From NCBI GenBank assembly GCA_037134755.1, contig JBAXLO010000008.1, positions 14,011 through 38,010 of the forward strand: a stretch of DNA of 24,000 nt, written 5' to 3'. The position numbers and the translations under genes are program-made. A model generated the notes under the pieces. The model searched no databases, was not told where the DNA came from, and saw only the letters and a program-made list of their open reading frames with translations. Below, piece after piece: positions 1,790 through 20,582 of the stretch (the first letter of the stretch is position 1; the number at the start of each line of letters is the position of its first letter). This DNA comes from Bacteroidota bacterium (GTDB taxonomy: Bacteria; Bacteroidota; Bacteroidia; Bacteroidales; JACABE01).

Positions 1790-1794
1790 AAATT

Positions 1795-2589
1795 TTACCT
1801 CACAATTATTTCTGAAATCATATTTGTTTCCGGATATTGTATTGAATTTGTTAAGTGCCATATATCACTAGTATCAGGGATATATTTTAATTCTATAATT
1901 TTCTGGTTATTTAATATCCGTAGTGCCATTGATAAGCTTTGCTTGATTCGATTATCTTTTATTGTATTAAGATATTGTGGTGAATCAATAATTAATTGAT
2001 TGATGAACATTTTGACTGGAATTTTTTTACCACTTTCAAATGGTTTCTTAAATTTCAACCAATCACAAATATTATTATTGCACCCAAATACTAATGTTGA
2101 ACCAGCCCCTGCCTTTTGGAATGTAGCTAATCCAAGTGCCACAGCCCAATATCTGAAGCCTAAAATAAAGTCTTTTTCTATGTTAATTCCAAACTCAATT
2201 TCCCTAGGTATTTTATTTTTTAGTTCTTCTGCGGACTTATAACTAAACACATTACTTTGTTGACCAAGATACCATTTTACTAATAGTGTAAATGCCGTAT
2301 CCTTTTCTTTAAAAATATTATCTGCAATAGTAAACCTAAGAATATTAAAATTTCTTAATTGTTCTTCTGTAAAATCAGTAGATACTTTTTCACCATTTAT
2401 TAATTTAATGAAATTGCAATCCAATGAAAACTTAAAAACCCTATCATATGCTGTAGTATTTTCATGGCCTAACGTTATTAATTTTTTAAATTCTTCTTTT
2501 CTATATTTATCTTTTGCTCCTGCAAGCTTACAAATAATATAGACCATTTCTGGCATGCATTCTTGCCTTAATGAGTCTGCAATAATCAT
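1795..2589 (-). CDS. hypothetical protein, 264 aa, no recognised motif
   Basis: ATG start 2 nt after the stop of the RecQ-like gene. A GGGGG-type SD sits inside the upstream gene's 3' end. Its stop is 5 nt before the next start. Amino-acid composition looks like normal coding sequence. Confidence 0.7.
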   Translation of the reverse strand: MIIADSLRQECMPEMVYIICKLAGAKDKYRKEEFKKLITLGHENTTAYDRVFKFSLDCNFIKLINGEKVSTDFTEEQLRNFNILRFTIADNIFKEKDTAFTLLVKWYLGQQSNVFSYKSAEELKNKIPREIEFGINIEKDFILGFRYWAVALGLATFQKAGAGSTLVFGCNNNICDWLKFKKPFESGKKIPVKMFINQLIIDSPQYLNTIKDNRIKQSLSMALRILNNQKIIELKYIPDTSDIWHLTNSIQYPETNMISEIIVR

Positions 2590-2591
2590 AA

Positions 2592-5084: not shown

Positions 5085-5092
5085 CTAATCAC

Positions 5093-8000
5093 TCACCCCT
5101 TTTTAAAAACAGTAAATGCAATAGAATCTAATTCTATTATTGGGTTTGTTAATCCATAAATCAGTGCTTCTATAATGTCTTGAGTTAAGCAATATGTATT
5201 AATATCATTTATCCCATAGAATATCTCTCTTGCTTTCTTTGAGTTGAATTGGTTGTCAAGTTCTTCTCTCGCTCTTGTTATATCAGTAAAAATTTTAGCT
5301 TGCTCCGCTGCAATACCTTTGCCGGTTTTGTATGCAGCTTTCACATACTTTTCCCAATTCACCTTTGGATATTTATTTTTAAATGCATTAATCATTCCAT
5401 TTTCTCGTTTTCCGAGATGCATTGGTCTTTTATGCGTTACTTCTTCTAGTTGCCTCAGAATGTTGTATTCACTTATTGAATCCCACTTAATATTCAATGG
5501 CGCGGTGTTAATTACCTGCTTGTTATAAATAAATCTGCTAATCAATGTATAAATCTCTAAAGGATATCCCTTTTCAATTAGTTTTATTGGATTATAGTTT
5601 ATATTCCAGGTTGTTATTAATCCAATCCATTCAATTTCGCAATTTGAATATAAAAATGCGCAACATCTTCCTTTATAACATTCTTCTGCATTTCTTGTGA
5701 TGCTATCAAAGAATGGATTAAAAGGTGCAAAAAAACCTAAATTTTCATGTTTTATAGCCGCAGCCCTTGAAAACGTACCCCAAATATCATTTTTGTATCT
5801 CGCTCGGCTAATCAGCTCATCCATTCTAGGAGGGAAGTATAAAGAATTGAACATGCTACGCGCATTTAATTGTGTTGTGTCAACTTTTATTATTTTATAT
5901 CCATCTTTATATGCATTTGTAACTGTAACGTTCTCGAATCCTGCCATAGATGGCCATATCAACATTGTATCCATCAATCTTTTTCCATCGTTCTCGGTAA
6001 ATTTGATTATTAGCTCATTTAACTTTTTTTGTAAAAACGGATCAAGTTGTCTTGCCAAATCAAAGTATCTTTCTCTTTCAACTTCCGATTTCATTTTATT
6101 GTAGAATTCCTTAACATTCCCAAGTAATTTACCTAATCCAAATTTTGCATCGCTAATAAATGAGTTAGTAATTAAATCATTTAATTCTTCAAATATTATC
6201 TCCATTCCACATAATGATTCATCAAACATATTAAGTCCATTGCTATAGATGCTAAACAAATCATTTTCGATTGTATTCTCGGTAAAAAATACAATTGATA
6301 TAACATCTTTTCCTAGTTCTCTTCCTATCCTATCAAGCCTTCCAATTCTTTGTTCAATTAATGCTGGAGACCATGGTAAGTCAAAATGTATTATATAATC
6401 TGCAATCTGAAAGTTACGACCTTCACCCCCTGATTCATCACAAATAATAAATCTACAAAGATCATCGTTTTGAAATATTGTTGCCGATTCTTGCATTGCT
6501 TCTCTTGTTTTATTCGAATGAAATGAAGATGTCGAGTTTGTGCCAAAAAAAGATTCGAAACATTCTTCAAGTTTCAGCGCTGTTTCTGTAAAAGTTGTAA
6601 AAATAATATATTTTTTATTCTTTTCCAAATCCTCCTGGTCAATAAAGTCAATAACATTTGCAAATCTACTGTAGAATGATTCTATTTCATCAGATACATC
6701 TTTAATATTACTTATCTCTTGATTTGTTGCCCTTTTCCACTTTATATTTAACAACTTTATATTTTCAAGATAATCATTTTCGTTATCCAATAATTCAGAC
6801 TTTATATTGCTTCTTTCTTTTAGCACCACTTCCAACGCATAAGGTGAGCTAAAGAATGCGCTAAGTATTTTTTTTGCATACTCGAATAATTCGTGTTTTG
6901 GTTCTAAGTGTGATGAGAAAATATAATCTACATAATCAAGAACTTTTGACGAACAATTTTCTTCATTGAAATCTACATCAGCGCCCCTCATTTGATATGG
7001 TTTCATAATTAATTTTCTTGTAGTATTTTCATTTTCGATTTCAGTTCTTCTGTGCCTAATAATGTTTTTCTCTAATTGATAAAACTCTGCAATATATGCA
7101 AGGGATAGCCTAGCATATTTTATACCTTTATCATCAGAATCCCCATCGATGTTCATAATTAGTACTGAAAGCTTTTCATCACATATCTCTTGATTGATTT
7201 TTCTAAGCTTATTAATAAAGTCGCCTGATAAATTATATTCATTATAATCAGAAAGGTCTTTCATCATGTCATATACAAGATCCCTTATCTTGCGTTGCTT
7301 TTCCATTAAGTTAGTAAATTGAGTCAAATTGATAGTATCGAAACGTTTGGGATTCAATATTTTAAGTAATCTATAATATTCATCTTCGCGTTGTAAGATT
7401 GGTGTGGCACTAAGAAGAAGAAGCTCTTTTACATCGCCGGAAAAATTGTAAACTGAAGTATAAAGATTATTATTGTTAAGTAATTTATGAGTTTCATCTA
7501 CAACACACATGTCCCAATTAGCAAGTCTTTTTATTGTTTTTTCATTTTTTACAAAATCGCTTGTTGAAACTATAAGGAGTTTAGGCTCGCTTATTTCATC
7601 CACTCCCCATATTGGTATATTGAACCAGAATTTAAAAGAAAGCTCTGTTTGCCACTGATAAATAAGAGTGTCAGGAATAATAAATATAACTTTAGTCTTA
7701 GGTGACTTATCTATTTTACATTTAACAATTGAACATGCTTCGATAGTTTTTCCAAGTCCTACTTCATCAGCAAGCATTAATCTGCAAGGATTTTCTGATA
7801 AAGCTCTAATAATTGTATCTATTTGATGTGAAAATAAATGTACTCTTGTCCCAAGGAGGTTCTTGAATCCATATGGCGCATTATCAATCATATTCAATGA
7901 TTCACTAACAATTCTGCGATTTAAATACCATCTTGGGTTTTGCAATTCATAATTTAGCATTTGATATATTGGGTTAAAATTAGACCTGTTTAGAGAAGCT

Positions 8001-8365
8001 AGGATTTCTGTCTCGCATACAATCCCAGTTCTTGTTTCTCCATCTTTCATAAATTCAATATAATAATCATAGTATTCATAATCTGAGCTAGGTTTCCTGG
8101 AAGTTGTTATTATTTTAACCTTAAAACCCTTATAATTAATAATTGTATTGTCTAAAATGCAGCTTCTTTGAAGTTTATTTGCTTTGTAAATCACTCTGTT
8201 TGGAAGAAATTTGAAGAAATCTCTTAATCTAAAAAGATCATGGAAAACTACTGTAATTTTATCATTAACTAAATCAGCAAATTCTATTTGGCCTAATATA
8301 AAATCTCTTGGGTTTTGTGGATCTTCGTCATAAGCGCACCTTACATACATTCCCTTTTTTAACAT
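5093..8365 (-). CDS. RapA-like Swi2/Snf2 family ATPase/translocase, 1090 aa
   Basis: HQIDTIIRAL...RLMLADEVGLGKTIEA (GLGKT = 7745..7759). DETH box at 7487..7498. LLLSATP. GGEGRNFQIADYIIHFDLPWSPALIEQRIGRLDRIGR closely resembles E. coli RapA motifs V-VI. A roughly 390-aa extension after the core has no recognisable motif. Confidence 0.9.
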   Translation of the reverse strand: MLKKGMYVRCAYDEDPQNPRDFILGQIEFADLVNDKITVVFHDLFRLRDFFKFLPNRVIYKANKLQRSCILDNTIINYKGFKVKIITTSRKPSSDYEYYDYYIEFMKDGETRTGIVCETEILASLNRSNFNPIYQMLNYELQNPRWYLNRRIVSESLNMIDNAPYGFKNLLGTRVHLFSHQIDTIIRALSENPCRLMLADEVGLGKTIEACSIVKCKIDKSPKTKVIFIIPDTLIYQWQTELSFKFWFNIPIWGVDEISEPKLLIVSTSDFVKNEKTIKRLANWDMCVVDETHKLLNNNNLYTSVYNFSGDVKELLLLSATPILQREDEYYRLLKILNPKRFDTINLTQFTNLMEKQRKIRDLVYDMMKDLSDYNEYNLSGDFINKLRKINQEICDEKLSVLIMNIDGDSDDKGIKYARLSLAYIAEFYQLEKNIIRHRRTEIENENTTRKLIMKPYQMRGADVDFNEENCSSKVLDYVDYIFSSHLEPKHELFEYAKKILSAFFSSPYALEVVLKERSNIKSELLDNENDYLENIKLLNIKWKRATNQEISNIKDVSDEIESFYSRFANVIDFIDQEDLEKNKKYIIFTTFTETALKLEECFESFFGTNSTSSFHSNKTREAMQESATIFQNDDLCRFIICDESGGEGRNFQIADYIIHFDLPWSPALIEQRIGRLDRIGRELGKDVISIVFFTENTIENDLFSIYSNGLNMFDESLCGMEIIFEELNDLITNSFISDAKFGLGKLLGNVKEFYNKMKSEVERERYFDLARQLDPFLQKKLNELIIKFTENDGKRLMDTMLIWPSMAGFENVTVTNAYKDGYKIIKVDTTQLNARSMFNSLYFPPRMDELISRARYKNDIWGTFSRAAAIKHENLGFFAPFNPFFDSITRNAEECYKGRCCAFLYSNCEIEWIGLITTWNINYNPIKLIEKGYPLEIYTLISRFIYNKQVINTAPLNIKWDSISEYNILRQLEEVTHKRPMHLGKRENGMINAFKNKYPKVNWEKYVKAAYKTGKGIAAEQAKIFTDITRAREELDNQFNSKKAREIFYGINDINTYCLTQDIIEALIYGLTNPIIELDSIAFTVFKKG

Positions 8366-8396
8366 ATTGCTTAACCTCTTTCGGCGTGGTAAATAG

Positions 8397-10046
8397 CTAC
8401 TTACTTATATCTTTCTTCCCCTTTAGGTTCTCAACTAACTCATTCAATTCTGCCTCCGATAATGAAAATCTCTTTGTCGGTTCAAATTCTACTGATTCCA
8501 TTGTATTTGTGTGCATAGCTCCTATTTGGTATAAACCCGCGTCGTTTATATCCATACTAAGCATTATTTGATCATTTGTGTAGTAAAGTGGCAGAAAAAA
8601 TGAAAATTGGCATATTTCTTTTTTCTCCACTTTTTCTTTTTCAATTATCTCATTAAAGCAGAGATCAATTCTGTCGTTTAATGCATGTCCAACTTTAATT
8701 GCAAATTCTTTCTTTTCCAAAAATGGATATTCCGTCCCCTTTGGTATAAAAACGCTTGATTTACCAGCATGATATATTTCAATATCCCTTGAAACAATGC
8801 TATTACACTTATTTTGAGCAAAGGGGGGTATAATAGTCCCATTTTTAAGTGCAGCTTGTATTGCTGCACCTTTTGCAACTGCCTTATTGAAATCATCTGA
8901 ATGTATAATTTTTTCTTTTGTGATGCCACCGATACTTGAAAATACATTAAATATTAATTCCCTTACATATGGAATTTGAGAACTACCTCCTATTAATATT
9001 ACTTGTGAGATAGGCAAGCGTTTTTTGCTAATTCCCTTTAAAACATCTGCAATCCTTGTTTTTATGCTTAGCTTGCTATCCCCCAATACTTCCTCTTCAA
9101 AATCTTCCCTAGTAACGATTATTGGTTTATAAATGCCTTCAAAAGATATTTTTACGCTTTTCTCAGTTGAGAGTTTGATTTTTGCTTGCTCAATATTTCT
9201 CTTAAGTCTAAATATATATTGCTTAACATCAATACTCACATCTTCAGAAAATTTTAATATTTTATGATCTAAATAATTTATATAATAATTTTCAAAAGCG
9301 ATTTTTACTTCTTGAATAAATTTATCATTTACATATTCATTGGCTATATTCTGGAGAACTAAATCAGTAAAAATAAAATCTATAATATTTCCTCCCAATT
9401 CAGGATCTCCACCAATTTCAAGAACTTCAGGTGTAATTGCGCCATTTGCATAACATACCTTTATTAATGATAGGTCTAACGTCCCCCCTCCGAAATCAAA
9501 CACAAGAATATTTTTATGCGCATCAGATGAGAACCATTCTATGCCCTTTTTTACATACTGATCAAAAAGGTGGTACATGATAGCAGCTGTTGGTTCTTCA
9601 ATTAAGCCTTCAATTCTCATCCCTGCTGCAATTCCTGCTTGCATTGTAGCGTCTTTCTGCGTTTGGTCAAAAAATGCTGGAACAGTTATTAAGGCAGATT
9701 TTATCTGATTATTGTGCAATTTATTGAAGTGCCTAAGAAGGTAAGCAGAAATCTCTTGAGGTGATTTGTTAATTATATTTCCGTTTATTATAATAGGTAT
9801 TTCAGTTGTTTTCCCAAGACGAATTTTAACAAGTTCAACAGTACTGTCGGGATAAATATATAATTTGTTTTCGGCAAGACTCCCAACTTTATAATTATTT
9901 TCGTCCTCGAAATACACTATTGACGGGAAGCTTTCATTGCCTTCATCATCATTGAGACATTTTACTTCGAAGCTCCCGTCAAGCTTTTCTTCTACTTTTG
10001 CAACAAGACAATTGGATGTTCCTAAATCAAGTCCGTAGCTTATCAT
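8397..10046 (-). CDS. atypical short Hsp70-family ATPase (HscC-like, 549 aa)
   Basis: Phosphate-1 motif YGLDLGTSNCLVA (10011..10028). ITVPAFFDQTQKDATMQAGIAAGMRIEGLIEEPTAAIMY. Phosphate-2 motif VFDFGGGTLDLSLIK. Adenosine motif ILIGGSSQIPYVRE. An SBD-beta-like stretch runs IPKGTEYPF...MDINDAGLYQIGA. The protein ends soon after, so the helical lid is short or absent. GGAGG SD at 10053..10057. Confidence 0.9.
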   Translation of the reverse strand: MISYGLDLGTSNCLVAKVEEKLDGSFEVKCLNDDEGNESFPSIVYFEDENNYKVGSLAENKLYIYPDSTVELVKIRLGKTTEIPIIINGNIINKSPQEISAYLLRHFNKLHNNQIKSALITVPAFFDQTQKDATMQAGIAAGMRIEGLIEEPTAAIMYHLFDQYVKKGIEWFSSDAHKNILVFDFGGGTLDLSLIKVCYANGAITPEVLEIGGDPELGGNIIDFIFTDLVLQNIANEYVNDKFIQEVKIAFENYYINYLDHKILKFSEDVSIDVKQYIFRLKRNIEQAKIKLSTEKSVKISFEGIYKPIIVTREDFEEEVLGDSKLSIKTRIADVLKGISKKRLPISQVILIGGSSQIPYVRELIFNVFSSIGGITKEKIIHSDDFNKAVAKGAAIQAALKNGTIIPPFAQNKCNSIVSRDIEIYHAGKSSVFIPKGTEYPFLEKKEFAIKVGHALNDRIDLCFNEIIEKEKVEKKEICQFSFFLPLYYTNDQIMLSMDINDAGLYQIGAMHTNTMESVEFEPTKRFSLSEAELNELVENLKGKKDISK

Positions 10047-10052
10047 AAGTAT

Positions 10053-10057
10053 CCTCC
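10053..10057 (-). promoter_or_regulatory. Shine-Dalgarno GGAGG for the Hsp70-like gene
   Basis: Plus-strand cctcc, with a 6-nt spacer to the ATG at 10046. Confidence 0.7.
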
Positions 10058-10060
10058 GGT

Positions 10061-10774
10061 CTAAAGTGATATTTGTTCTGGTTCCGGTTCTGGTTCTTTT
10101 TCAATTTGGGCTTCCATATTTTTAGATTTTTTATACTTTGTTGTCTTTTCTTTAATTATTACTTTATCCTTATTTTCAATATGTAATATTATTTTAGTAT
10201 TTGGCTTTATACCCTCTTCTGGCCATAATCCTAAGCCAGTAATTTCTTCAGTAATCTCAGAAATACTTGAAATTATGTTATTGATTGTATCAATCATAAC
10301 ACTTGTATCATCTCCGTTATTTATTTGCTCTCCTAAAGCGCTTGATGTATTGGCACTAGAAACTAGCCTATCTCTTACTATTTGTAGTTTCTTTCTAGTT
10401 TCATTTATAGTAGATTTCTTAATCTTTTCTTTCTCATTATTAGCATCGTCAATTAAGCCCTGTGCTCGACTGATTGATGATTTTAACTTTTCATTTTCTT
10501 CTATTAAAAGTCTATGTTCCAAATACCTCCTACCAATTGCGTCGAATTTAATATTTTCTTTTATCAATTCCAATGCTGTTTTTAAAGCACTATTAATTGA
10601 ATCACTCCTTGCAGATATTTTTTCTTTGTTTAAAACAGTTTCTAAATAGTTTGAGGTAGCATATTTTTCGTTTAATTCGTAGAGAAAAGTGAAAATTTCA
10701 TTCAGATACGAATTGCTTTCTCTTCCATCGCTTTGCTTGATAAATTCTTCCATTAATAAATCTTTAATATTCAT
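10061..10774 (-). CDS. hypothetical coiled-coil protein, 237 aa, acidic EPEPEPE tail
   Basis: ATG start with AGGAGGAA SD at 10783..10790. The long central stretch is rich in charged residues and looks heptad-like (IEENEKLKSSISRAQGLIDDANNEKEKIKKSTINETRKKLQIVRDRL). The C-terminal part looks beta-rich (KIILHIENKDKVIIKEK). No J-domain HPD motif. Confidence 0.65.
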   Translation of the reverse strand: MNIKDLLMEEFIKQSDGRESNSYLNEIFTFLYELNEKYATSNYLETVLNKEKISARSDSINSALKTALELIKENIKFDAIGRRYLEHRLLIEENEKLKSSISRAQGLIDDANNEKEKIKKSTINETRKKLQIVRDRLVSSANTSSALGEQINNGDDTSVMIDTINNIISSISEITEEITGLGLWPEEGIKPNTKIILHIENKDKVIIKEKTTKYKKSKNMEAQIEKEPEPEPEQISL

Positions 10775-10782
10775 AATTAATC

Positions 10783-10790
10783 TTCCTCCT
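10783..10790 (-). promoter_or_regulatory. Shine-Dalgarno AGGAGGAA for the 237-aa coiled-coil gene
   Basis: Plus-strand ttcctcct. There are 8 nt between it and the ATG at 10774. It overlaps the last base of the upstream stop codon. Confidence 0.7.
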
Positions 10791-11434
10791 TATAACCAAT
10801 GCATACCCGAAATCCAATAACGTGAACTATTTCCCTGAAATTTATGCCTATATAAAATAAAATATAGCTCTTTATCTTTTCTATTTAGTAAATCTAAATA
10901 TTTTTTTCTTTTATTTTCAAACTCACTATTTTTTATTATCCAATTCCAATAATGAACCCATCGATAATCTTTATTTAGAAATTCTTTTGCTTCTTTAAGA
11001 CAAGTTATATTCGCTTTTATTCGATACTTATTTATTTGCCCACCTTTTGATTCAGTTTTTTTATCTATTGAGATATCTTCAACTTCATTAACTTTTACAA
11101 TTGCATATCTTTCTTTAGTATTTACAAAAAACTTATCTCCATTTAGCACTTTAGCTTCAAGTATCTTTTTTAGTAAATCTATACTATTATTAGCAAGCTT
11201 TACTTTGAAAGCCTCATACATTTCGTTTCCATATTTTGATTCTTTGATCCTGATTTCATCTACAAATGTTGTGAACCCAATATCCCACATAACTTCTCCA
11301 TTAGTAGAAACTATTTGATCTCTCACTAAATCAAAAGATAGAATGTTTTTACTTTTAACATCATAGGCAACGACAGAGAACTCATCTGTGTTAGGGAATG
11401 TTTCAGTAATGGCAAGGGTTATCAGTTCATACAA
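10790..11434 (-). CDS. hypothetical protein, 214 aa, Trp-rich C-terminus
   Basis: The ORF begins at a TTG (plus-strand caa at 11432..11434) 2 nt after the upstream TAA. GGGAG lies about 10 nt upstream. There is no in-frame ATG near the start, so the start is uncertain. The C-terminus reads YRWVHYWNWIIKN...RYWISGMHWL. Confidence 0.6.
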   Translation of the reverse strand: MYELITLAITETFPNTDEFSVVAYDVKSKNILSFDLVRDQIVSTNGEVMWDIGFTTFVDEIRIKESKYGNEMYEAFKVKLANNSIDLLKKILEAKVLNGDKFFVNTKERYAIVKVNEVEDISIDKKTESKGGQINKYRIKANITCLKEAKEFLNKDYRWVHYWNWIIKNSEFENKRKKYLDLLNRKDKELYFILYRHKFQGNSSRYWISGMHWL

Positions 11435-11436
11435 AA

Positions 11437-14211
11437 TTATTCATCTCCCATCATACTTTCACTTACTTCGTAGTAGTTTCTAAGGCATACATCTGTAAAG
11501 TTACAATTTTCGCAAACTTTTTTATGAGGCAATTCAATTTTTTTCTGATAAAGTTTGCTCGACTCCATATATTTATTGATACGCATATTAATATTATCTA
11601 AGCTGAAATTCATTGTGTTTTGCTTTGTTTTGTCATCTTTCCATTGTGCAATTAGAAAGTTTAACTTTCTTCTTCTGTAAATCATACCCGTACCATTATT
11701 ACCAATAATCTGCTTATAGGTGTTCTTTTCTAAGTCGTATAAAACTGCTTGCCCCCAGAACGGAAAAAGTTTTCTAATATTTTCATATTCAATTGAAAGC
11801 TTATTTTTTAAATCTTTTTCCTTCAGTCCATACTTTTTTTCCATTAAAATAAACATAAAATTAGATACAAAATATTTTATATGGTATTCATTTGAATATT
11901 CGATTGGTGATTTAATCAGATAATTTATCATGAATTTAAATGGGCATATTGCGAATGTTTCTTTTTCCTCACTTGATAACTTTTCTGAGTTTAAAGCGCT
12001 TATAACTTTTTCTTTTGATTCCTCAGCAATAAATGACGGCTGTCCGCTTTTGTCAAATAATTTTTGACCTAGATTTAGAATTTTAAGAAGATAATAAAGC
12101 GTCTGTTCTCTGCCATTTTCTTCTTGAATAAAACTTAATTGAATATTCTTATTTGAGAAAAATGTTCCATAAAATAGTGAGAATTTGAGAAAATTTCTAT
12201 GTTCTAATATGCATTTTGTTATTACAGGGACTGCTGATTCCATGTCCGTATATCCAACAAACATTTTTTCTGATAGTGGCCAAGTCAAGATATCGCTGTT
12301 CTGAGAATTCATATTCAAGTTTGACAATAATGCAAAATGATGATATTTAGCGGTTGTCGAAGTTCCTAATAAGACAGAACCATCAATTTGTTCAAAATTT
12401 CTGACAATCCAGTTTGATGAATCTTTTTTGTTTGAACCCGAAAGATAGAAGGCTATTGCATCTTTTACATCCTCAATATTCCCTTTGACCGCACCCTCGT
12501 GAAATAACTTCATTTTTATATTTAGTTCTTCTATTAATTTACTTTCTGTGTCGCTAATAATTACATTCGATGTAGCTTTGTTTGATATTATTTCCATCAA
12601 AATACCAAAATGCTTTGCAAAGTCTACTGTTTTATTTGAATCCTTAAACAATTCATTTGAAATCCCTTCAATAAATTCGATGAATTTTTTAAATTCATCG
12701 ATCTCATCCAAAGTAATATTAAAAAATGAAATCATTTTTAAATCATTATATAAGTTGTTAGTATTTATTATTTCATTAGCAGTTTTTAGCTCTTTGATTC
12801 TCTCGTAATATTTGATTAATAATTTCACGTCTGTGAAGTATGTAGAAATTTTTTTGTAGATTGAGTATATGTTGTGTGTTTCTGATTTATATAGACCCGT
12901 AGCAGCACACTCAAGTAAATATTTGTCTTCTATTTTCAAACTCGCAACTTCAAAATCCCACATTGAATAGATACCAAGAATGAACTGTCCAATTGGGTAA
13001 GAAAGGAAATGCCTGCTCCCAAATTGATCTGGGTAATACATCTTAAGCAATGCGTTACTTGATTCTCCAGTAACAGCATAATATTGCGTCTTCATTTGGC
13101 TAATTGATTCACCTGCTTCATCGAAAGTTATAGCAACTTCGTTGTCTGTGAATTCAGTCAGATTTCTAAATAATATAACTTCTTGATCATCTAGTTTGGG
13201 TGGGTCTTTGCCTTCAATAATGGCTGCAATTGACTGGCCAATAAGTTGTCCAGATTGAATGTCAATGGTACTTTCATATTCAAATTTTGCATCGCACCAC
13301 CCATAAACCTCTTTCCATGTGCTATAAGTAAATGGCAAATTTTTGCAGTAATTAATTAAGAAAATTACTTCAACTCCAAATTTTTCAAGTTGTTTAAAAA
13401 AATGAAACATAATTGGAGTTATTTTATGTACCCCATGTACAATTATTTTATTGAAAGCTTCAAAATTCTGACCTTGCAAAAGTTCATATAAATAATTCGC
13501 GCGGTCAAGGTCCCTTTTATATGTAGTCTTTTTTCTACCTGTCAAACTTAAGTATCCTTCTTGTCCATGCTTAGACTGGCTTAATTTATTTAAATAATCA
13601 ATGATGATTCTCAAACATTCTAAACCATCATTTCTATCATTCAAATTTGATTTTGCTCCTGATTTTTCAATATAATTCCTTCGGTTATCGCCAAAATACC
13701 ATTTAATTTCTTCATTTAAAGTTGAAATAATTGATGAGATATAATCTTCTTTATTCAATAATGCTAGTTTCTTGTACCCCTCATAATACTCACTCGTTAT
13801 TACTTCCTCATATATAATAATTAAGTAGTTCTGCTCTACTGACAAATCAGCTTTATTGAATAAATTGCTATCAGCATTCATTAATATTAATAGTTTTATT
13901 GATTCTACAATATCAGAAATATTAAACCTAAAAGCCTTTTTTATTTCTGGTTCCTTCATTCCTCTTATTATGTTTGAGATTGTAAGAAAAAGCTGCATAT
14001 CGCTCTGCGGATTATTTATGAAGTCTTTATAAAACAAGTTGATTAGCGTTGTTATAGCCCCCATATACCCAAATGATATTCTTCCATATTGAGTTTCTAA
14101 ACCTTGCATAAGGGTATCTGATGCACAAAAGTGAGGGTGATCTGTGACCACTTTCCAAAGCTCCTCGTTTTCATTAATTTTACATGGATTTGGATAAGTA
14201 AGTATCCTCAT
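11437..14211 (-). CDS. large protein with C-terminal AddB/Cas4-type four-cysteine (iron-staple) PD-(D/E)XK-like domain, 924 aa
   Basis: The first Cys sits in FAICPFKFMINYL (C756, 11944..11946). CENCNFTDVC supplies C900-x2-C903-x5-C909 (11485..11514). This matches the C...CxxCx5C pattern of AddB/Cas4/RecB-family nucleases. No Walker A is seen in the roughly 750-aa N-terminal part. The ATGA overlap with the upstream helicase gene indicates translational coupling. Confidence 0.6.
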   Translation of the reverse strand: MRILTYPNPCKINENEELWKVVTDHPHFCASDTLMQGLETQYGRISFGYMGAITTLINLFYKDFINNPQSDMQLFLTISNIIRGMKEPEIKKAFRFNISDIVESIKLLILMNADSNLFNKADLSVEQNYLIIIYEEVITSEYYEGYKKLALLNKEDYISSIISTLNEEIKWYFGDNRRNYIEKSGAKSNLNDRNDGLECLRIIIDYLNKLSQSKHGQEGYLSLTGRKKTTYKRDLDRANYLYELLQGQNFEAFNKIIVHGVHKITPIMFHFFKQLEKFGVEVIFLINYCKNLPFTYSTWKEVYGWCDAKFEYESTIDIQSGQLIGQSIAAIIEGKDPPKLDDQEVILFRNLTEFTDNEVAITFDEAGESISQMKTQYYAVTGESSNALLKMYYPDQFGSRHFLSYPIGQFILGIYSMWDFEVASLKIEDKYLLECAATGLYKSETHNIYSIYKKISTYFTDVKLLIKYYERIKELKTANEIINTNNLYNDLKMISFFNITLDEIDEFKKFIEFIEGISNELFKDSNKTVDFAKHFGILMEIISNKATSNVIISDTESKLIEELNIKMKLFHEGAVKGNIEDVKDAIAFYLSGSNKKDSSNWIVRNFEQIDGSVLLGTSTTAKYHHFALLSNLNMNSQNSDILTWPLSEKMFVGYTDMESAVPVITKCILEHRNFLKFSLFYGTFFSNKNIQLSFIQEENGREQTLYYLLKILNLGQKLFDKSGQPSFIAEESKEKVISALNSEKLSSEEKETFAICPFKFMINYLIKSPIEYSNEYHIKYFVSNFMFILMEKKYGLKEKDLKNKLSIEYENIRKLFPFWGQAVLYDLEKNTYKQIIGNNGTGMIYRRRKLNFLIAQWKDDKTKQNTMNFSLDNINMRINKYMESSKLYQKKIELPHKKVCENCNFTDVCLRNYYEVSESMMGDE

Positions 14212-17200
14212 TCTTGCACCCCACTAATCATTTTACTCCAATTATACTTAGTCTTTTTCTTTGAGACTTCATAAGAAATATAAATTATTCTCTTGATTGC
14301 TCTTGTAATTGCTACATATAAAATTCTTGTCTCTTCTCTTCTTCTATCTATAATCTCGTCCTTTTGATAGTTTTCATAATGATTATTCTCGCAAATTATT
14401 TTGTAGTCTCTGCCTGTGATTCTGTATCCAACTTCATTTTTTGAATATATTAAATCAACCTCTCCTTTTGCTCTGGCACTTGAAATATCAAAGTTGCAAT
14501 AAGGAAGTAATATCGTATCAAATTCTAGCCCTTTCGCTTTATGAACAGTTGTGCATATTGCTTTTGCTTTAGATTTTTCAATATCATATGATTCTCTTGC
14601 TTCTTCTTCTTGTTTTGTTAATATCATTATTTCCAAGTAATCAGAAAGCTTATTTATCGTAATGTAATCGGTATTTGAAGCTATTATTAATTTTTCAAAT
14701 AATTGGTCAAGATTTCTTATATAATATGATTCCAATCTTTCTATCTCTTCTAAACCATCTGCCTGCGATTTAATTGCAAATGTTTCCCAAGGCTTAGTAT
14801 CGTTTACTATATCCCTTATTACTTTTAATGCCGGCTCTTCCGTCAATCTAGAAATATATTTATTCCATTTGTTTAAATTTTTAGGCAAATTATTATAGAA
14901 TAATTCTACAATTTCTTCTTCATTTAACCCTACTAACGAATTCTTTTCCAGTTCATCGATTATATAAGATGTTGTATATAGGTTATAGAGATATTTTGGC
15001 CATCTATTATGTTTAAGTGCAAGTACTAATTTAAACAAATCAATAGTTGGATCAATTCTAAATAGGTCTCCTCCTATTTCAGTCTCAATATTAATTTTGG
15101 CTTTTTTACATATTTCCTTAATATTGTTAACTTGCCAATTGTAGCGAACTAAAATTGCAATTTTATCATTTTCATTTTCAAGACTTGGTATATACTGCCT
15201 CAATGTATCGACCAACTTTTTCTCGAATTGGGGATCGCTAAACACTTTAATATTATATAATTCAGTAGAATCACATAATAACTTTGTTCCTATTAATATA
15301 TCTTCCTCTGAGTAATCTATATCTCCATTATTATTCCAAGCCCTGAAAACTTTATTCATTTGTTTCATAAGGTTACTATCAGTTCTGTAATTTTTATTAA
15401 GTGAAACTGTTGTAAATTGATTTTCATTGTCAAGCGTATCGAAAGCTTTGACCTGGGCTCCCCTGAATCTGTAAATACATTGTTTTATATCACCAACTAC
15501 GAAGAATTTATAATTAAATTGCTTTCTAAAATCTTTCATAAGTTGGATTTGAACATCATCTGTATCTTGAAATTCATCGACAAAAAGAAAATCAATATTA
15601 TCTTTCTGGAACGTAGGGTTTTCTTGGAGTTTAGTTAATAATATTCTCAGTTTTTTTATTAAGTTGCCAAGACTAACGGAGTTATTTGTATCACAATATT
15701 CATTCATTTCAACTTGAGTTGATTTAAGTTCTTCAATTAATTTATTAAAAATTTTATTATTTGGATTTCCAAAGTCAACATCTTTATCAGATATTTCAAC
15801 ATTTTTATCATCTAACTTCTCTAATAAATGCAAGAGCCTCTCTTGCAGATCATACATAGATATTTCTATTTTATCCTCTATTTCTTTATTTTTTTCTACA
15901 AAGTCATTTATATGCTTATGCAGGATCTCTTTCCTTTTATATTTGCCTGTTGTAATGCTAAATTCTCTTCCTAAGCCTAAAACATAGCCGTATTTCTTGA
16001 TAATATTTTTAGATAAAGCATGAATTGTTGAAATGTTCATATCTTCAATAGCTTCAATAAAATCTAAGAAGTCATTATTTTTAGTCAGTAAATAAATATT
16101 CAAAAAACTATCAGCAAGTTTTTCTTTCATCGCTTGGGCTGATTCATTTGTAAAAGTGATCATAATTATAGCTCTTTTTAAATCGTATGTGTCATAACCC
16201 TTTTCCCATATCAAATATTGAATCCTAGAAATTATAACGTAGGTCTTTCCAGTGCCTGCCCCAGCCTTCACGATGATGTCCTCAAGTTTCGCATGCTCAA
16301 TAGAATACTGCCCTAAATTAAAGCTTGAGCTTTCATTTAGGCTAACAAGTTGATTTGTATATTTTCCTGATTCGCTTCCATTTATTATTTCAAATGATTC
16401 TGCGTTAACTTCCGTTAAGCTTAGATCGAAGTTAAAAGTGCTATTGCCGATAAATTTAAAATCTTTTCTGTCATCTAGTCCCATGCTTTTGATGCAACCT
16501 TCTATTTCCCCTCTAATTTTTATGAGAACATTTAGCGAAGTCACATATACATAAAATTTGGTTCCCGAATTCCATTCATGAATCATTTTTTCAAGATATG
16601 TTTTGTCAATTTCTTCATTATTTATAAAGATCAGTTTAGAGTAGTATCGCCTTACTAGCTTAATTTTATCTTTCTCTGCTTTTGAGTCGGGTTTCCCTTG
16701 CTTGTTTTCCGAACGAAATTCGGGGCTTACTAAATTCCCTACAGTATTTAATATTGGTTTGTCCAAACCATTTTTAATTAATCCAGGAATATTAATTTGT
16801 TCATATGCATCTTCAAATATTTTCTCGATTTTATCCTTCAAAGTTTTAGCGTTTTCTAGGTCTTCCATTGTAATCGTCATAATTGGGCCAGATATTTTGT
16901 TGAGATGTTTTGATTCATATTCTTTCTTATTAAGGAAAGGATAACAAACGCTACATGGCACATAAACTGAGTTAATGCCTGCATTATGAAGTATTTCAAT
17001 TAATTGAAATCTATATCTATTTGCTTGAGCTAGTGGAGATGGTATTGGTGGGTAATTCTTAAGATTAATTCTAGAATTATCTGGCACTTCGATAATATTC
17101 TTTGCTAGAAAACCCTTTATCTCTATAATTAATGCCCCAAGTTTTGGCACCAGTAGAATAATATCCACCTGCTTCTGCCCTAAGTAATAATTGTGAAAAC

Positions 17201-17294
17201 TTACATAATCTTCTGGTAATAGTTCTTTAAATTTTCTCCAGACGTAGTTTTCGCCTTCTGAATTTCCATCAAAGTCATTTATAGGTAATATCAT
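14208..17294 (-). CDS. NERD domain - UvrD/Rep-like SF1 helicase fusion, 1028 aa
   Basis: N-terminal NERD-like region YVWRKFKELLPEDYVSFHNYYLGQKQVDIILLVPKLGALIIEIKG contains D44...E58-x-K60 (17115..17165). Helicase motif I is VKAGAGTGKTYVI (16242..16262). Motif II is FLFVDEFQDTD. Motif III is VVGDIKQCIYRFRGA. Motif IV is NKNYRT. C-terminal motifs are TVHKAKGLEFDTILLP and LYVAITRAIKRI. Confidence 0.85.
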   Translation of the reverse strand: MILPINDFDGNSEGENYVWRKFKELLPEDYVSFHNYYLGQKQVDIILLVPKLGALIIEIKGFLAKNIIEVPDNSRINLKNYPPIPSPLAQANRYRFQLIEILHNAGINSVYVPCSVCYPFLNKKEYESKHLNKISGPIMTITMEDLENAKTLKDKIEKIFEDAYEQINIPGLIKNGLDKPILNTVGNLVSPEFRSENKQGKPDSKAEKDKIKLVRRYYSKLIFINNEEIDKTYLEKMIHEWNSGTKFYVYVTSLNVLIKIRGEIEGCIKSMGLDDRKDFKFIGNSTFNFDLSLTEVNAESFEIINGSESGKYTNQLVSLNESSSFNLGQYSIEHAKLEDIIVKAGAGTGKTYVIISRIQYLIWEKGYDTYDLKRAIIMITFTNESAQAMKEKLADSFLNIYLLTKNNDFLDFIEAIEDMNISTIHALSKNIIKKYGYVLGLGREFSITTGKYKRKEILHKHINDFVEKNKEIEDKIEISMYDLQERLLHLLEKLDDKNVEISDKDVDFGNPNNKIFNKLIEELKSTQVEMNEYCDTNNSVSLGNLIKKLRILLTKLQENPTFQKDNIDFLFVDEFQDTDDVQIQLMKDFRKQFNYKFFVVGDIKQCIYRFRGAQVKAFDTLDNENQFTTVSLNKNYRTDSNLMKQMNKVFRAWNNNGDIDYSEEDILIGTKLLCDSTELYNIKVFSDPQFEKKLVDTLRQYIPSLENENDKIAILVRYNWQVNNIKEICKKAKINIETEIGGDLFRIDPTIDLFKLVLALKHNRWPKYLYNLYTTSYIIDELEKNSLVGLNEEEIVELFYNNLPKNLNKWNKYISRLTEEPALKVIRDIVNDTKPWETFAIKSQADGLEEIERLESYYIRNLDQLFEKLIIASNTDYITINKLSDYLEIMILTKQEEEARESYDIEKSKAKAICTTVHKAKGLEFDTILLPYCNFDISSARAKGEVDLIYSKNEVGYRITGRDYKIICENNHYENYQKDEIIDRRREETRILYVAITRAIKRIIYISYEVSKKKTKYNWSKMISGVQE

Positions 17295-19372
17295 GAGCGT
17301 CCTCCATCTTCCAGATATGTTACTATTAGCTCATCTCTTGCTCTTGTTGACGCAACATATTTTTCACATTCAATTAGTTTGTCATAATATTCACCAATTT
17401 CTGGAGAATCACTTTCGATGCTTCTATAATTTTTTATATTGTTATAGTCAAATATTATAACGACCTCAAACTCAAGCCCTTTTACTCCCATAATAGTACA
17501 AATACACACTCCCTTATCTTTCCCCGGAATGATATCATCAATTAGCAAAGTTGATACTATCTCAGATAAAATTAGAACTGCTTTTATTTCATTGCTCTCT
17601 TTAATTGTAGGGCAAATAATGCAAATTTGATTTGGTGCTCTTCCAGTTTTTATTAGATCTTGAACCTTTGATGCTATAAATTTATACTGGCTTGCTTCAG
17701 TGGTAAAGCCCTCAACTAGGGGATCAGCGCCACTCACGATTGATTTATATTCTTTAATATGGCCATTGACCATCTCTGATTGTATGAATTGATATCTAGC
17801 ATAATCGTTTATTTGTTTAGTTGTTCTATAATTTATTGATAAATATTGCGTTCTTCCAACTATATTAATTTCTATTTTATTTTTCCATGTCCCAAGGTTA
17901 AATATCCTTTGATTCATATCAGAAAGTATAAATATATTATTTTCTTTGGTTTTTACACACTTGCATAACGCCTTAAGTTTGATTGGTTCTAAATCCTGGG
18001 CCTCATCGATAATAATTGAATCATATTCCGCGTGTATTGAGCCCTCAATTAGTCCACTATTCATTTTATGAGCTCGATCTACAAAGGTTGTAATACCTCG
18101 CAACCTTTTTTCGTTTAATAATACTTCGAAGAACTTCCAAACAATTATACGTTTTTTTTCGTTAAGAGGCATTCCCGTTCCAGTTCGATCAGCTAGAAGG
18201 TATTCGCTCTCTGTTGTTATATTATATTTTTCAATAACCTCGTTATATTCAAATTGGTAAAACCCTTTTGTTCCCTTAGGTTTAAGTTGCTCATAAATCG
18301 TTGTAATTAACTTTTGCATACCTTGTGTATCGACATTTTGGATATGCCCATAAGCGTTGTTTAATGTAGAAAGTATAAAGCTATCAATTCCTACAACATC
18401 TATATTGTTCTTAATTCCCTTTATACGAATTAATTCCTCAACCTTCTCATTAATACTTTTGGCTAACTTTTTACTAAAAGTGCAAATTAAAATTTTCTTT
18501 CCGTCTTCAGACTTGTAAACATTTTGTGATAGGTAAATTGCTCTATGTATACCCACTATTGTTTTACCTGTTCCTGGGCCGCCTTCGATGAGTGCGGGGC
18601 CATTGAAATTCTTCTTAACAATCTCTTCTTGGCTTGGGTGAAGGAATAAAGTCCATTTTTCGAACGAATCATTGTCAGTCAAAATCTGTAATTCCTCTAA
18701 GGAATCAACTAAATAAAACCTTCTCTTGCTATCTTTATGATTTATTGAATTTTGAGTATCTTGATATTTATCATCAACTAACTCATTATAAATGGTTTCA
18801 TAGCTTTTAATACCAGACGCTAAATCTAGTAAAGCTTCTTGAATTTCTGAGGGAAAGATTGTAACGTAATCTAGATATTTATCCTCATTGGAAATGTTAA
18901 TTAAATTCTCTGCATGAATTTCGGCAATCCCAAGTTTTATTAAATTTTTAGCCTTAATGTTATTTGCTTTTAATAAAGACTTCTCTTCAATCATTTCATA
19001 TGGCTCATTTTGTTTAAGTTGATCTTCTTTATTATTCATAAGATTTTCATCATATATATATTCTGCCCCGAACTTTGTCTTATTTAAAGACTTACCCTCG
19101 CACCAATCATATGCTTGATCATGATGATCAACATATAAAATAGTGAAAATATCGCCCTGGGGTACAAATATCATTCTAATATCATCATTTACCCTTGCAC
19201 TTCTAAATTTCGGATCACACTTGACTCTATCAATACTATGGACTTGTAGCGATGCGCTTTTATGATTTTCAGATAATAAATTAATTGTATTTAAGGTAAG
19301 CTTTCTTGACTGTGCATCTAGTTTGAACACACTACTTAAGTAAGACTCTGTAATTGCAATATTCTTATCCAT
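17291..19372 (-). CDS. UvrD-like SF1 helicase with a distinct ~95-aa N-terminal domain, 693 aa
   Basis: Motif I is LIEGGPGTGKTIVGIHRA (18560..18580). ILICTFSKKLA. Motif II is IIIDEAQDLEP. SDMNQRIF. INYRTTKQI. TIMGVKGLEFEVVIIFD. YVASTRARDELIV. GAGGTG SD at 19377..19382. Confidence 0.85.
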   Translation of the reverse strand: MDKNIAITESYLSSVFKLDAQSRKLTLNTINLLSENHKSASLQVHSIDRVKCDPKFRSARVNDDIRMIFVPQGDIFTILYVDHHDQAYDWCEGKSLNKTKFGAEYIYDENLMNNKEDQLKQNEPYEMIEEKSLLKANNIKAKNLIKLGIAEIHAENLINISNEDKYLDYVTIFPSEIQEALLDLASGIKSYETIYNELVDDKYQDTQNSINHKDSKRRFYLVDSLEELQILTDNDSFEKWTLFLHPSQEEIVKKNFNGPALIEGGPGTGKTIVGIHRAIYLSQNVYKSEDGKKILICTFSKKLAKSINEKVEELIRIKGIKNNIDVVGIDSFILSTLNNAYGHIQNVDTQGMQKLITTIYEQLKPKGTKGFYQFEYNEVIEKYNITTESEYLLADRTGTGMPLNEKKRIIVWKFFEVLLNEKRLRGITTFVDRAHKMNSGLIEGSIHAEYDSIIIDEAQDLEPIKLKALCKCVKTKENNIFILSDMNQRIFNLGTWKNKIEINIVGRTQYLSINYRTTKQINDYARYQFIQSEMVNGHIKEYKSIVSGADPLVEGFTTEASQYKFIASKVQDLIKTGRAPNQICIICPTIKESNEIKAVLILSEIVSTLLIDDIIPGKDKGVCICTIMGVKGLEFEVVIIFDYNNIKNYRSIESDSPEIGEYYDKLIECEKYVASTRARDELIVTYLEDGGRS

Positions 19373-19388: not shown

Positions 19389-20582
19389 TTAGATATTATT
19401 AATAATAAAATTCAATGCATCCATTATTTCAGACTTAGATGTTTTAGTTCCATAAGATATTCTCAGAACATTTCCTGTCATATTCTCAAGACCTATTGCC
19501 TTCAAGACGTGAGATGGTTGGCCTGCTGTACATGCAGAGCCAGATGAAAGGCAGTATTTATCGCTTATTTTCTTTATAAATCTTTCATTATTAAAATCTT
19601 CATTTTTAATTATTAAGCTTAATATCCCTGGGAGTTTATTGTCAGGGTCTCCCAATATTTCAATGCCTTCTATTTTTTTTAAAAGTGAATTTATCTCTCT
19701 ATCAATTTCTAAATAATGCTGCTGATTTTTAGCCTTATCCCTAATAACTATCTCCGCAGCCTTACCAAAACCAACAATATTATGAACGGCTAAAGTTCCA
19801 GCCCTAAGACCATTTTCTTGTTCTCCTCCGTGAATTAGTGAGGATATTGGAGGTAAACCAAAATCATCTTCCCGAATATATGCTGCTCCTACTCCTTTAG
19901 GTCCGTTTAATTTATGTGCAGAGAAAGAAAGAAAATCTACTTTAGTCTTCTCGACATCTACATCTATCTTCGCTATAACTTGAGTTGCATCAGAATGAAT
20001 GGGAACCATCTTGCTGTGAGATATTTCAGCAAGTTTTAAAATGTCATTAATGGTTCCTATTTCATTATTTCCCCATATTAATGAGACAAGAATTGTCGAA
20101 TTCTTTATATTGTCCAACAAATTTTCAGGTTCAACTTGTGCATATTTGTTTACTTCTAAGAAAGTTACTTCATACCCTCTATCTACCTTTAAAATTTTAT
20201 CAGTTATAGAGAAAGAAGAATCTTTATTTGAATATAATTCTCCATTTAAGAATTTGCATGTGTTTAAAGTTGCCTTATGCTCAACCATTGATGTTATAAT
20301 ATGATTTCCTTTTTTAGTATAAAGCTTCTGGTAGTCAGCTATACCTTTGATGATCATGTTCGTACTTTCAGTTGCGCCTGAGGTGAAAACAATGCTTTGT
20401 GGCTGCGTATTGATTAGTTTAGCCACCCAGAGTCGACTTTCTTCAACTGCTTCTTTTGCTGAAGCAGCTAGTTTATAATACTTACTTGAGGGGTTTCCAT
20501 ATTCTAAAGTTAGATAAGGAATCATTGCCTCATAAACTTCTTTAGCGATTGGCGTTGTAGCGCAATAATCCAAATATGTCAT
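19389..20582 (-). CDS. dndA: cysteine desulfurase (NifS/IscS class V aminotransferase), DndA by context
   Basis: TSGATESTN. PLP-lysine motif SFSAHKLNGPKGVGAAYI (K224). Active-site cysteine loop LSSGSACTAG (C351). ATGA overlap with dndE. Confidence 0.88.
   Translation of the reverse strand: MTYLDYCATTPIAKEVYEAMIPYLTLEYGNPSSKYYKLAASAKEAVEESRLWVAKLINTQPQSIVFTSGATESTNMIIKGIADYQKLYTKKGNHIITSMVEHKATLNTCKFLNGELYSNKDSSFSITDKILKVDRGYEVTFLEVNKYAQVEPENLLDNIKNSTILVSLIWGNNEIGTINDILKLAEISHSKMVPIHSDATQVIAKIDVDVEKTKVDFLSFSAHKLNGPKGVGAAYIREDDFGLPPISSLIHGGEQENGLRAGTLAVHNIVGFGKAAEIVIRDKAKNQQHYLEIDREINSLLKKIEGIEILGDPDNKLPGILSLIIKNEDFNNERFIKKISDKYCLSSGSACTAGQPSHVLKAIGLENMTGNVLRISYGTKTSKSEIMDALNFIINNI

Follow-up and report, generated by a model that had tools for sequence, protein, structure and literature searches.

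The 24,000-nucleotide stretch of contig JBAXLO010000008.1 analysed here (the window), from a member of the Bacteroidota, encodes a 549-residue Hsp70-family ATPase preceded by genes for two small proteins of 214 and 237 amino acids, with which it forms a tightly spaced triad. As set out below, we think it likely that a mobile helicase–nuclease module, acting as an effector arm of dnd-encoded DNA phosphorothioation (PT), includes this Hsp70 as a fixed subunit. All of the long open reading frames (ORFs) in the window lie on the minus strand and make up one uninterrupted array, a 14-gene operon in which neighbouring genes either overlap or lie no more than 31 nt apart (spacing −14 to +31 nt). In gene order the array comprises dndC (partial), dndD, dndE, an IscS/DndA-like desulfurase gene, the genes for a 693-aa UvrD helicase, a NERD–UvrD protein, a 924-aa protein, the 214-aa and 237-aa proteins and the Hsp70, and finally four genes whose products resemble DpdE, DpdF, DpdG and DpdH. 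The dnd genes run into the helicase genes, with stop and start codons that overlap or abut. The six genes that end with the Hsp70, referred to here as the block, are as follows, in window coordinates:

17291..19372, minus strand: UvrD-family helicase, 693 aa, with a ~240-aa N-terminal extension (Pfam UvrD-helicase 1.8e-24)
14208..17294, minus strand: NERD (PD-(D/E)xK) nuclease domain N-terminal to a UvrD/AddA/RecB-type superfamily 1 (SF1) helicase, 1028 aa (Pfam NERD 2.5e-11, UvrD-helicase 1.8e-45, UvrD_C 1.7e-20)
11437..14211, minus strand: 924-aa protein, probably AddB/RecC-like (invariant four-cysteine pattern)
10790..11434, minus strand: predicted tandem-OB (oligonucleotide/oligosaccharide-binding) protein, 214 aa, TTG start, a putative single-stranded DNA (ssDNA)/DNA-binding subunit on the basis of AlphaFold2 (AF2) and Foldseek
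10061..10774, minus strand: coiled-coil protein, 237 aa (profile matches in the PDB are to coiled coils only)
8397..10046, minus strand: lidless Hsp70-family ATPase, 549 aa (Pfam HSP70 E=3.5e-54)

The gaps at the triad ORFs are 2, 15 and 14 nt, and a purine-rich Shine–Dalgarno-like sequence is found 5′ of the gene starts, including those of all three triad genes, so that the tight spacing and strong ribosome-binding sites reported in a first-pass annotation of this DNA stand, with exact coordinates. The same annotation placed the Hsp70 between helicase-rich flanks, and this too is borne out: two UvrD-type helicases are encoded upstream of the triad and an SNF2 and a DEAD helicase (DpdE- and DpdF-like) downstream. 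A scan of the window for promoters and terminators found sites no more commonly than in shuffled sequence, and none in the intergenic gaps; there is thus no evidence for operon boundaries inside the array. Beyond the DpdH-like gene the operon continues on the same contig with a 227-aa gene, a methyltransferase gene and a gene for an HNH endonuclease. A number of plus-strand ORFs of 80–135 aa (for example 318–725) run antisense to the long genes of the minus strand, have no credible family match and are most likely spurious.

Four regions can be recognised in the Hsp70: an actin-fold nucleotide-binding domain (NBD, residues ~1–401), an atypical linker (~402–416), a β-type substrate-binding domain (SBD-β, ~417–525) and a single terminal helix (531–542). 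The NBD contains the phosphate-1, phosphate-2 and adenosine motifs, and its nucleotide-binding and catalytic residues (in DnaK numbering D8, T11, K70, E171, D194, G196–198, T199, D201, E267, K270 and G341/342) are invariant in 21 family members. When a profile of 35 family sequences is aligned with bovine Hsc70, residues 7–526 of the latter are covered, corresponding to the NBD, SBD-β (Hsc70 residues 394–509) and the start of helix A only. An AF2 model of the protein (pLDDT 91, pTM 0.92) has a β-sandwich at ~415–520 (strands 421–512) and one short terminal helix of 12 residues. Its best Foldseek matches are to DnaK in the ATP-bound, domain-docked state (4B9Q and 5NRO; TM-score 0.76–0.79), with values of 0.76–0.82 against full-length and lid-truncated DnaK and BiP. 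As the C-terminus maps to around residue 527 of the 638 in DnaK, the lid (helices B–E) and the C-terminal tail are missing. The first-pass description of an atypical Hsp70 that has all of the nucleotide-binding motifs and an SBD-β-like segment and lacks a full helical lid is therefore accurate.

Other features set the family apart from canonical Hsp70s. The hydrophobic VLLLD linker has become a hydrophilic N-[KR]-C-x-S, the residues that contact the J-domain are not conserved (R167 is replaced by E, G or Q and N170 by E) and the substrate arch (DnaK M404 and A429) is built from small or variable residues. The hydrophobic positions of the substrate pocket are kept as aliphatic or aromatic residues (I, L, V or F). 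None of the 13 complete proteins encoded in the window contains an HPD tripeptide, in line with the earlier remark that the gene lies outside a dnaK–dnaJ–grpE context and has no J-domain neighbour, and there is no Pfam match to DnaJ or GrpE in the window or in the related loci described below, although a host J-protein could act in trans. With its catalytic residues retained and its linker, J-domain contacts and lid lost, the protein is probably uncoupled from the canonical J-protein/lid mechanism while remaining an active ATPase whose substrate pocket is of the peptide type. Many positions in the substrate domain, including H454, L456, P486, Y489 and G504, are invariant across the 35 sequences, which share 38–60% identity, and this suggests that the pocket serves one specific, conserved client and favours a fixed, internal one.

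Where does this protein belong within the Hsp70 superfamily? Counting full-length members at a threshold of 300 bits or more among 5.8 billion proteins returned around 87 clusters, of 540–560 aa and scoring 300–729 bits, after which the scores fall abruptly, generic Hsp70s reaching 162 bits. So sharp a drop indicates that the architecture of the family is not a chance product. In a neighbour-joining tree of the NBD that took in E. coli DnaK, HscA and HscC and 33 other Hsp70s, the family is monophyletic (bootstrap 96/100) and falls outside the group formed by DnaK, HscA and HscC; its NBD shares just 30–31% identity with each of these three E. coli proteins. NCBIfam models tell the same story, with 172 bits for DnaK against a cut-off of 648 and 156 bits for HscA against 709. 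Members are rare and patchily distributed across Bacteroidota and Bacillota. When genome contigs were scanned with an Hsp70 alignment representing generic Hsp70 motifs, housekeeping DnaK loci were the only ones recovered, at 25–32% identity.

The first-pass annotation had likened the protein to HscC. The two are of similar length (HscC has 556 aa), both have a shortened C-terminal region and both are encoded outside a dnaK–dnaJ–grpE operon. However, HscC has the gene for its J-protein, DjlC, as a neighbour, whereas the family described here has lost both the J-contacts and the hydrophobic linker, and its NBD is no closer to HscC (30.7% identity) than to DnaK or HscA, outside whose clade it lies. 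The resemblance is thus one of length and does not extend further. Given its separate clade, its similar distance from all three proteins and its rarity, the Hsp70 is, by sequence, not an HscC orthologue and not a housekeeping chaperone; the clustering with housekeeping HscC that an NBD phylogeny might have revealed was not seen.

The clearest indication of what the Hsp70 works with comes from its gene neighbourhood. We compared 15 non-identical loci from Bacteroidota and Bacillota that encode a family member: the window itself (L081), L084 (Halobacillus), L086 (Paenibacillus), L087 (Bacillus), L088, L089, L090, L091, L102, L106, L107, L108, L111, L112 and L119. Nine of these came from exact look-ups, and six were recovered by scanning metagenomes with the 214-aa family as seed. 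All 15 have, upstream of the Hsp70 gene and in the same orientation, a gene for an orthologue of the 214-aa protein; in 14 of them a gene for a coiled-coil protein of 237–297 aa lies between the two, L088 being the exception. The two small partner genes proposed in the first-pass annotation are therefore conserved. They do not stand alone, however: the 924-aa gene comes immediately before the 214-aa gene in every one of the 13 loci with enough upstream sequence, and is itself preceded by the NERD–UvrD gene in 12 of 12. Ten of these 12 loci also encode the 693-aa UvrD helicase, which is absent from L091 and reduced to a remnant in L087; its orthologues in five loci share 44–61% identity. Across the block as a whole, components are orthologous between loci at 23–61% identity. 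The earlier suggestion that the triad might be a separate three-gene defence module does not survive this comparison.

The four genes that follow the Hsp70 behave differently. In the window these are:

5093–8365, minus strand: DpdE-like SNF2 helicase (NCBIfam DpdE 4.8e-102; PADLOC DpdE)
2592–5084, minus strand: DpdF-like DEAD helicase (NCBIfam DpdF 2.8e-151; PADLOC DpdF)
1795–2589, minus strand: DpdG-like protein (NCBIfam DpdG 4.6e-08)
1–1789, minus strand: DpdH-like P-loop ATPase, cut by the window edge (NCBIfam DpdH 8.6e-76)

Every one of these NCBIfam scores lies below the equivalog cut-off. DpdE/F/G/H-like genes are found 3′ of the Hsp70 in 10 of the 15 loci and are absent from L084, L086, L087, L088 and L106, where the five- or six-gene block is nonetheless intact, save for the variants in L088 and L087. 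Since the block is kept in these five loci, the conserved unit is the five- or six-gene block that ends in the Hsp70, a unit larger than the triad and smaller than the window; the Dpd-like genes are an optional neighbour. The triad is thus tied to the upstream helicases, and does not sit neutrally between two modules as was first supposed. Other neighbours of the block are typical of defence islands and include GmrSD, BREX BrxC/PglY, SIR2, type I restriction–modification (R-M) and HNH genes.

Several loci show variations. In L088 (1–3033) the genes for the 924-aa protein, the 214-aa protein and a 472-aa Hsp70 (P0086) are present without a 237-aa gene, and this Hsp70 lacks NBD residues ~32–84 (lobe IB) and the terminal helix. 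These deletions may hint at the contact site of the 237-aa protein or may simply reflect decay; this is a single observation. In Bacillus sp. Marseille-P3661 (L087), where the 693-aa UvrD helicase is the remnant noted above, an IS110-family transposase gene (7131–8414) separates the 214-aa and 237-aa-like genes, and in L106 an ISL3 transposase gene (12799–14070) lies between the Hsp70 gene and dndB. HNH endonucleases of 331–341 aa with a ~200-aa uncharacterised N-terminal domain are encoded in L093 (15243–16268) and in L086 from Paenibacillus (11707–12702) and are 37% identical over their full length (E=1e-78); in the contig of the window the gene follows those for DpdH, the 227-aa protein and the methyltransferase, whilst in Paenibacillus it comes directly after the Hsp70 gene.

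The two largest conserved proteins of the block may form an AddAB-like helicase–nuclease pair. In the 1028-aa protein, the D...ExK residues of the NERD domain and the Walker A sequence GAGTGKT are invariant in seven orthologues, and its NCBIfam matches to AddA (4.9e-40) and RecB (2e-36) both fall below the cut-off. The 924-aa family has 460 representatives, and in 38 diverse homologues C756 and C900-x2-C903-x5-C909 are invariant, as is an HGVHxFTP segment. We take the C...CxxCx5C arrangement to be the iron staple pattern of AddB and Cas4, and xGxxxFTP presumably corresponds to a motif seen in AddB/RecC-like proteins. A Pfam search with 38 members of the family gave a single weak match, to RecC (0.0034). 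No conserved D/ExK triad is present in the cysteine-bracketed domain of the 924-aa protein, and the invariant D...ExK of the NERD domain therefore makes it more likely that any nuclease activity resides in the latter. The 693-aa UvrD helicase has weak NCBIfam similarity, limited to the Walker A region, to the RNA polymerase-recycling motors HelD/HelR and to helicase IV.

Distant relatives of the 924-aa protein are also encoded in four-gene operons on Geobacillus zalihae plasmid pJS1-2 (L094, 5921–12894) and on a B. cereus plasmid (L095, 4361–11730), together with a NERD/UvrD helicase, an ORF of 61–74 aa and a 472-aa UvrD helicase. These operons, which have Abi and restriction genes close by, contain no Hsp70, OB or coiled-coil gene and may represent a simpler, also unnamed, helicase–nuclease system. 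That relatives of the 924-aa protein occur without the triad makes the latter look like an add-on to an older helicase–nuclease core.

The 214-, 237- and 924-aa proteins have no match in Pfam, NCBIfam, PADLOC 2.0 or PHROGs, the weak RecC hit apart, and profile searches of the PDB gave no meaningful sequence match for the 214-aa family and coiled coils only for the 237-aa family. No member of the 214-aa family was found in a scan of viral contigs. The description of the 214-aa protein as an orphan is correct to the extent that no library family matches it, but it is not featureless. An AF2 model based on nine sequences (pLDDT 87, pTM 0.84) shows a pair of five-stranded barrels, both with a helix placed between β3 and β4, and Foldseek comparison with the PDB returns almost exclusively tandem-OB DNA-binding proteins (baculovirus LEF-3, Teb1-AB, RPA, CST, HIN-200 and single-stranded DNA-binding proteins (SSBs)) with a probability of ~1.0. 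The 214-aa protein is thus predicted to adopt a tandem OB fold and is a putative ssDNA/DNA-binding subunit. Its invariant residues are W50–D51, K155–D156, W159, W163, G210 and H212. The 237-aa protein is the fastest-evolving component of the block (16–32% identity), with L130, L183 and W184 being the only invariant residues in an alignment of seven orthologues. A conserved L-W-(P)-E motif containing W184 closes the helical part of the protein and is followed by a charged, low-complexity tail of 46–93 residues.

Two lines of evidence link the block to PT modification. The first is again gene order. In the window, the genes immediately upstream of the block are:

19389–20582, minus strand: IscS/DndA-like cysteine desulfurase (Pfam Aminotran_5 7e-68)
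20579–20959, minus strand: DndE (Pfam DndE 5.6e-24)
20956–23154, minus strand: DndD (Pfam AAA_23/SMC_N)
23141 to the window end (24000), minus strand: DndC, 3′ part, the reading frame running beyond the window

Overall, dnd genes adjoin the block in at least seven of the 15 loci, in three arrangements. They lie directly upstream and in the same operon in the window (L081), L089, L091/L110, L107 and L111; in L106, dndB-C-D-E-iscS are found downstream of the block, after the ISL3 transposase; and in L086 the gene for DndB is divergent from the block. That the Hsp70 is encoded in a dnd-linked operon, as the first-pass annotation proposed, thus holds for the window and beyond it. The second line of evidence comes from metagenome contig SL_5KL_010_SEDDRAFT_10027029 (L114), in which a 372-aa ORF (142–1260) fuses an N-terminal domain to a homologue of the 214-aa protein (E=5e-32) and is followed directly by an orthologue of the 693-aa UvrD helicase. 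The N-terminal domain matches SBD-Hga, a PT sulfur-binding domain of known structure (8H0L, E=1.4e-08), with weaker matches to the structures of the SprMcrA sulfur-binding domain (7CC9 family), and this fusion ties the 214-aa family to PT-DNA. No PT sulfur-binding domain was detected by sequence in the window, in the other loci or in the HNH proteins encoded near the block.

Taken together, these results make it likely, in our judgement, that the Hsp70 is an ATPase-competent, lidless and probably J-independent subunit, fixed in a mobile helicase–nuclease module that serves as a dnd effector arm, through a mechanism that we infer as follows. The module would comprise, in gene order, the UvrD-like helicase (sometimes absent), the NERD–UvrD protein, its 924-aa AddB/RecC-like partner, the tandem-OB protein, the coiled-coil protein and the Hsp70, with the DpdE/F/G/H-like block joining it in two thirds of loci. 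It would constitute the effector (restriction) arm of dnd PT modification and hence an alternative to DndFGH. The NERD–UvrD and 924-aa proteins would act as an AddAB-like pair, unwinding and cutting DNA according to its PT status, with the OB protein holding the unwound ssDNA or reading the DNA substrate and, in one variant, perhaps reading PT directly. By ATP-driven clamping of one conserved client segment, the Hsp70 would switch the nuclease complex between held and active states, or allow it to be recycled. Candidates for the client are the LWPE motif or the tail of the 237-aa protein, or a partner subunit, and the helical 237-aa protein could itself be an adaptor or a nucleotide-exchange factor for the Hsp70. 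The gating of a helicase by an Hsp70 has a parallel in the release of the DnaB helicase from lambda P by DnaK. The regulatory or remodelling switch envisaged in the first-pass annotation is still the best functional guess for the Hsp70.

A number of observations weigh against this interpretation. No dnd genes are visible in eight of the 15 loci, mostly because the contigs (~0.5 kb upstream) or the 10-kb flanks come to an end, and linkage to dnd may be less than universal. The sulfur-binding-domain fusion is known from a single 1.7-kb metagenomic contig. Searches of PDB profiles with the 924-aa family (7 and 38 sequences) found no relative, and when the protein was aligned with E. coli RecC using hhalign, only the HGVHxFTP region was paired, with a probability of 1.2%; its assignment as AddB/RecC-like, which we regard as somewhat better than an even bet, is based on the cysteine pattern and one short motif. 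The assignment of the OB folds is drawn from the nine-sequence AF2 model, for which the Foldseek TM-scores are only 0.3–0.5, and PADLOC 2.0 has no model matching the 214-, 237- or 924-aa protein.

A more detailed version of the scheme can be put forward tentatively, as a possibility that we rate below an even chance. Here the module would be a PT-sensing effector in which the Hsp70, having given up promiscuous client binding along with its lid and its coupling to J-proteins, is an ATP-driven latch with a single client, keeping the AddAB-like NERD complex inactive on PT-marked self DNA and releasing it on unmarked DNA. The OB protein would be the DNA or PT reader and the coiled-coil protein a private exchange factor of the BAG or GrpE kind. 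If this is so, it would be the first Hsp70 machine to form the regulatory core of a restriction-type defence.

The strongest competing explanation, itself unlikely, is that the module maintains phosphorothioated genomes instead of restricting foreign ones, processing breaks that arise where PT is present, such as those left by oxidative cleavage. PT sites are labile to oxidation, the helicase–nuclease components resemble AddA/RecB and AddB, the OB protein resembles proteins of the SSB/RPA type and all are encoded in the same operon as dndCDE-iscS. A repair machine of this sort sits poorly, however, with a distribution that is rare and patchy, with the company of GmrSD, BREX, SIR2, R-M and HNH genes and with the recurrent joining of the block to BREX- or Dpd-like restriction genes (DpdE–H). 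The rapid evolution of the 237-aa subunit, typical of conflict systems, and the insertion-sequence (IS) disruptions and decay seen in L087 and L088 also speak for defence.

Slightly less probable still is that the Hsp70 is a sensor of or decoy for infection, which by capturing a phage protein or an unfolded-protein signal would license the nuclease. The retained hydrophobic pocket and intact ATPase residues would suit such a role, and a threshold-sensor function has been put forward for chaperone-type ATPases of other conflict systems (PMC7159879). Yet a substrate domain with so many invariant positions fits an internal client better than a changing set of phage targets, and the protein has neither a lid with which to trap clients nor a J-protein to deliver them.

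We consider it improbable that the Hsp70 is a nucleic-acid-binding module and not a peptide clamp. The idea has a precedent in CnuD of the CoCoNuT systems, since the Hsp70 NBD/SBD units of type III CoCoNuTs are predicted to bind RNA (PMC10542128), and all of the other subunits of the block would act on nucleic acids. The ATPase motifs of the CoCoNuT proteins are degenerate, however, whereas every catalytic residue is invariant here; in addition, there is no McrB/McrC context and the predicted OB-fold protein would already supply DNA binding. Least credible of all is that the three genes work autonomously as a defence system of their own, or that the Hsp70 is a housekeeping HscC-type chaperone, and that they merely sit inside the operon: despite the close spacing of the three genes and the HscC-like length, both versions are contradicted by neighbourhood and tree data, as the 924-aa gene accompanies the triad in each of the 13 loci that reach far enough and the Hsp70 clade is separate, rare and far below every equivalog cut-off.

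How does the block compare with systems that have already been described? The four genes 3′ of the Hsp70 encode paralogues of DpdE, DpdF, DpdG and DpdH, but in the Dpd system (DpdA–K) the modification is a 7-deazaguanine, whilst the modification genes here are dnd and the DpdE–H scores remain below the equivalog level. We did not find dpdA, dpdB, dpdC, dpdD, dpdJ or dpdK in the window or in the contig as far as it was examined (including L093), and the Dpd literature searched describes neither an Hsp70 block in a Dpd system nor a dnd-linked DpdE–H block. The genes for the DpdE/F/G/H-like proteins, together with a 227-aa gene that may be DpdI-like (window 1–8365, minus strand, and L093, 10801–14545), are attached to dnd and not to dpdABC.

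Searches of the literature for Hsp70 in connection with Dpd, dnd, UvrD, NERD or defence brought up only CoCoNuT and the GTPase-centric systems. In type III CoCoNuTs, CnuD is likewise an Hsp70 NBD and SBD unit encoded in a predicted restriction-type operon rich in coiled coils and helicases (PMC11090510; PMC10542128). There it is associated with or fused to the components of McrB/McrC GTPase systems (CnuB/McrB and CnuC/McrC), carries HEAT-like repeats and has degenerate ATPase motifs (PMC10542128), in contrast to the intact ATPase described here; scans of the window with family libraries gave no McrB/McrC or HEAT match. The GTPase-centric conflict systems (Kaur et al. 2020, PMC7159879) share with the block the use of a dedicated Hsp70 paralogue as an NTP-dependent regulator, but they centre on TRAFAC GTPases and retain GrpE and J-domain cofactors, with DnaJ fusions and tubulin also present (PMC7159879); the present system has neither, and the J-interface of its Hsp70 has been lost.

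Like AddAB and RecBCD, the block encodes an SF1 UvrD-type helicase carrying a PD-(D/E)xK nuclease and, as its putative partner, a protein of ~900 aa. Here, however, the nuclease domain is an N-terminal NERD domain in place of the C-terminal RecB domain, and scores lie far below the AddA and RecB cut-offs. For the 924-aa protein, no sequence similarity to the structures of AddB or RecC could be detected and no D/ExK is conserved, and the additional UvrD, OB, coiled-coil and Hsp70 subunits are without counterpart in AddAB/RecBCD. If the block restricts DNA, the Hsp70 would be a natural J-independent, lidless, single-purpose switch acting on a helicase–nuclease and a compact model of rewired Hsp70 allostery.

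Finally, the block has in common with DndFGH, PbeABCD, SspE and SspFGH that it is a multi-gene effector encoded beside or in an operon with dnd, that it brings together helicase or ATPase and nuclease domains and that it is modular and separable from the modification genes. None of its six proteins matches DndF/G/H, Pbe or Ssp in PADLOC or NCBIfam, and for the downstream DpdE/F-like helicases the only traces are PbeA (6.7e-09, on the helicase domain) and dnd_restrict_1 (0.0023). The PT-linked modules known so far include no Hsp70, no tandem-OB protein and no pair of the AddAB kind, and neither an Hsp70 nor UvrD partners are named in a survey of dnd neighbourhoods from the Aravind laboratory (PMC10853773) or in a survey of PT in the gut microbiome. 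We therefore class the block, which belongs to no named system, among the PT-linked modification/effector defences, its Hsp70-containing effector module being without precedent. If it restricts DNA, the 924-, 214- and 237-aa proteins would be three new families missed by the current defence-finder libraries. The sulfur-binding-domain fusion offers a direct way into the question of how the PT mark is recognised by such a system. Several effector modules are known from modification-linked defence, none of which uses an Hsp70; if the block does restrict DNA, it would add a further effector architecture to PT-based immunity.

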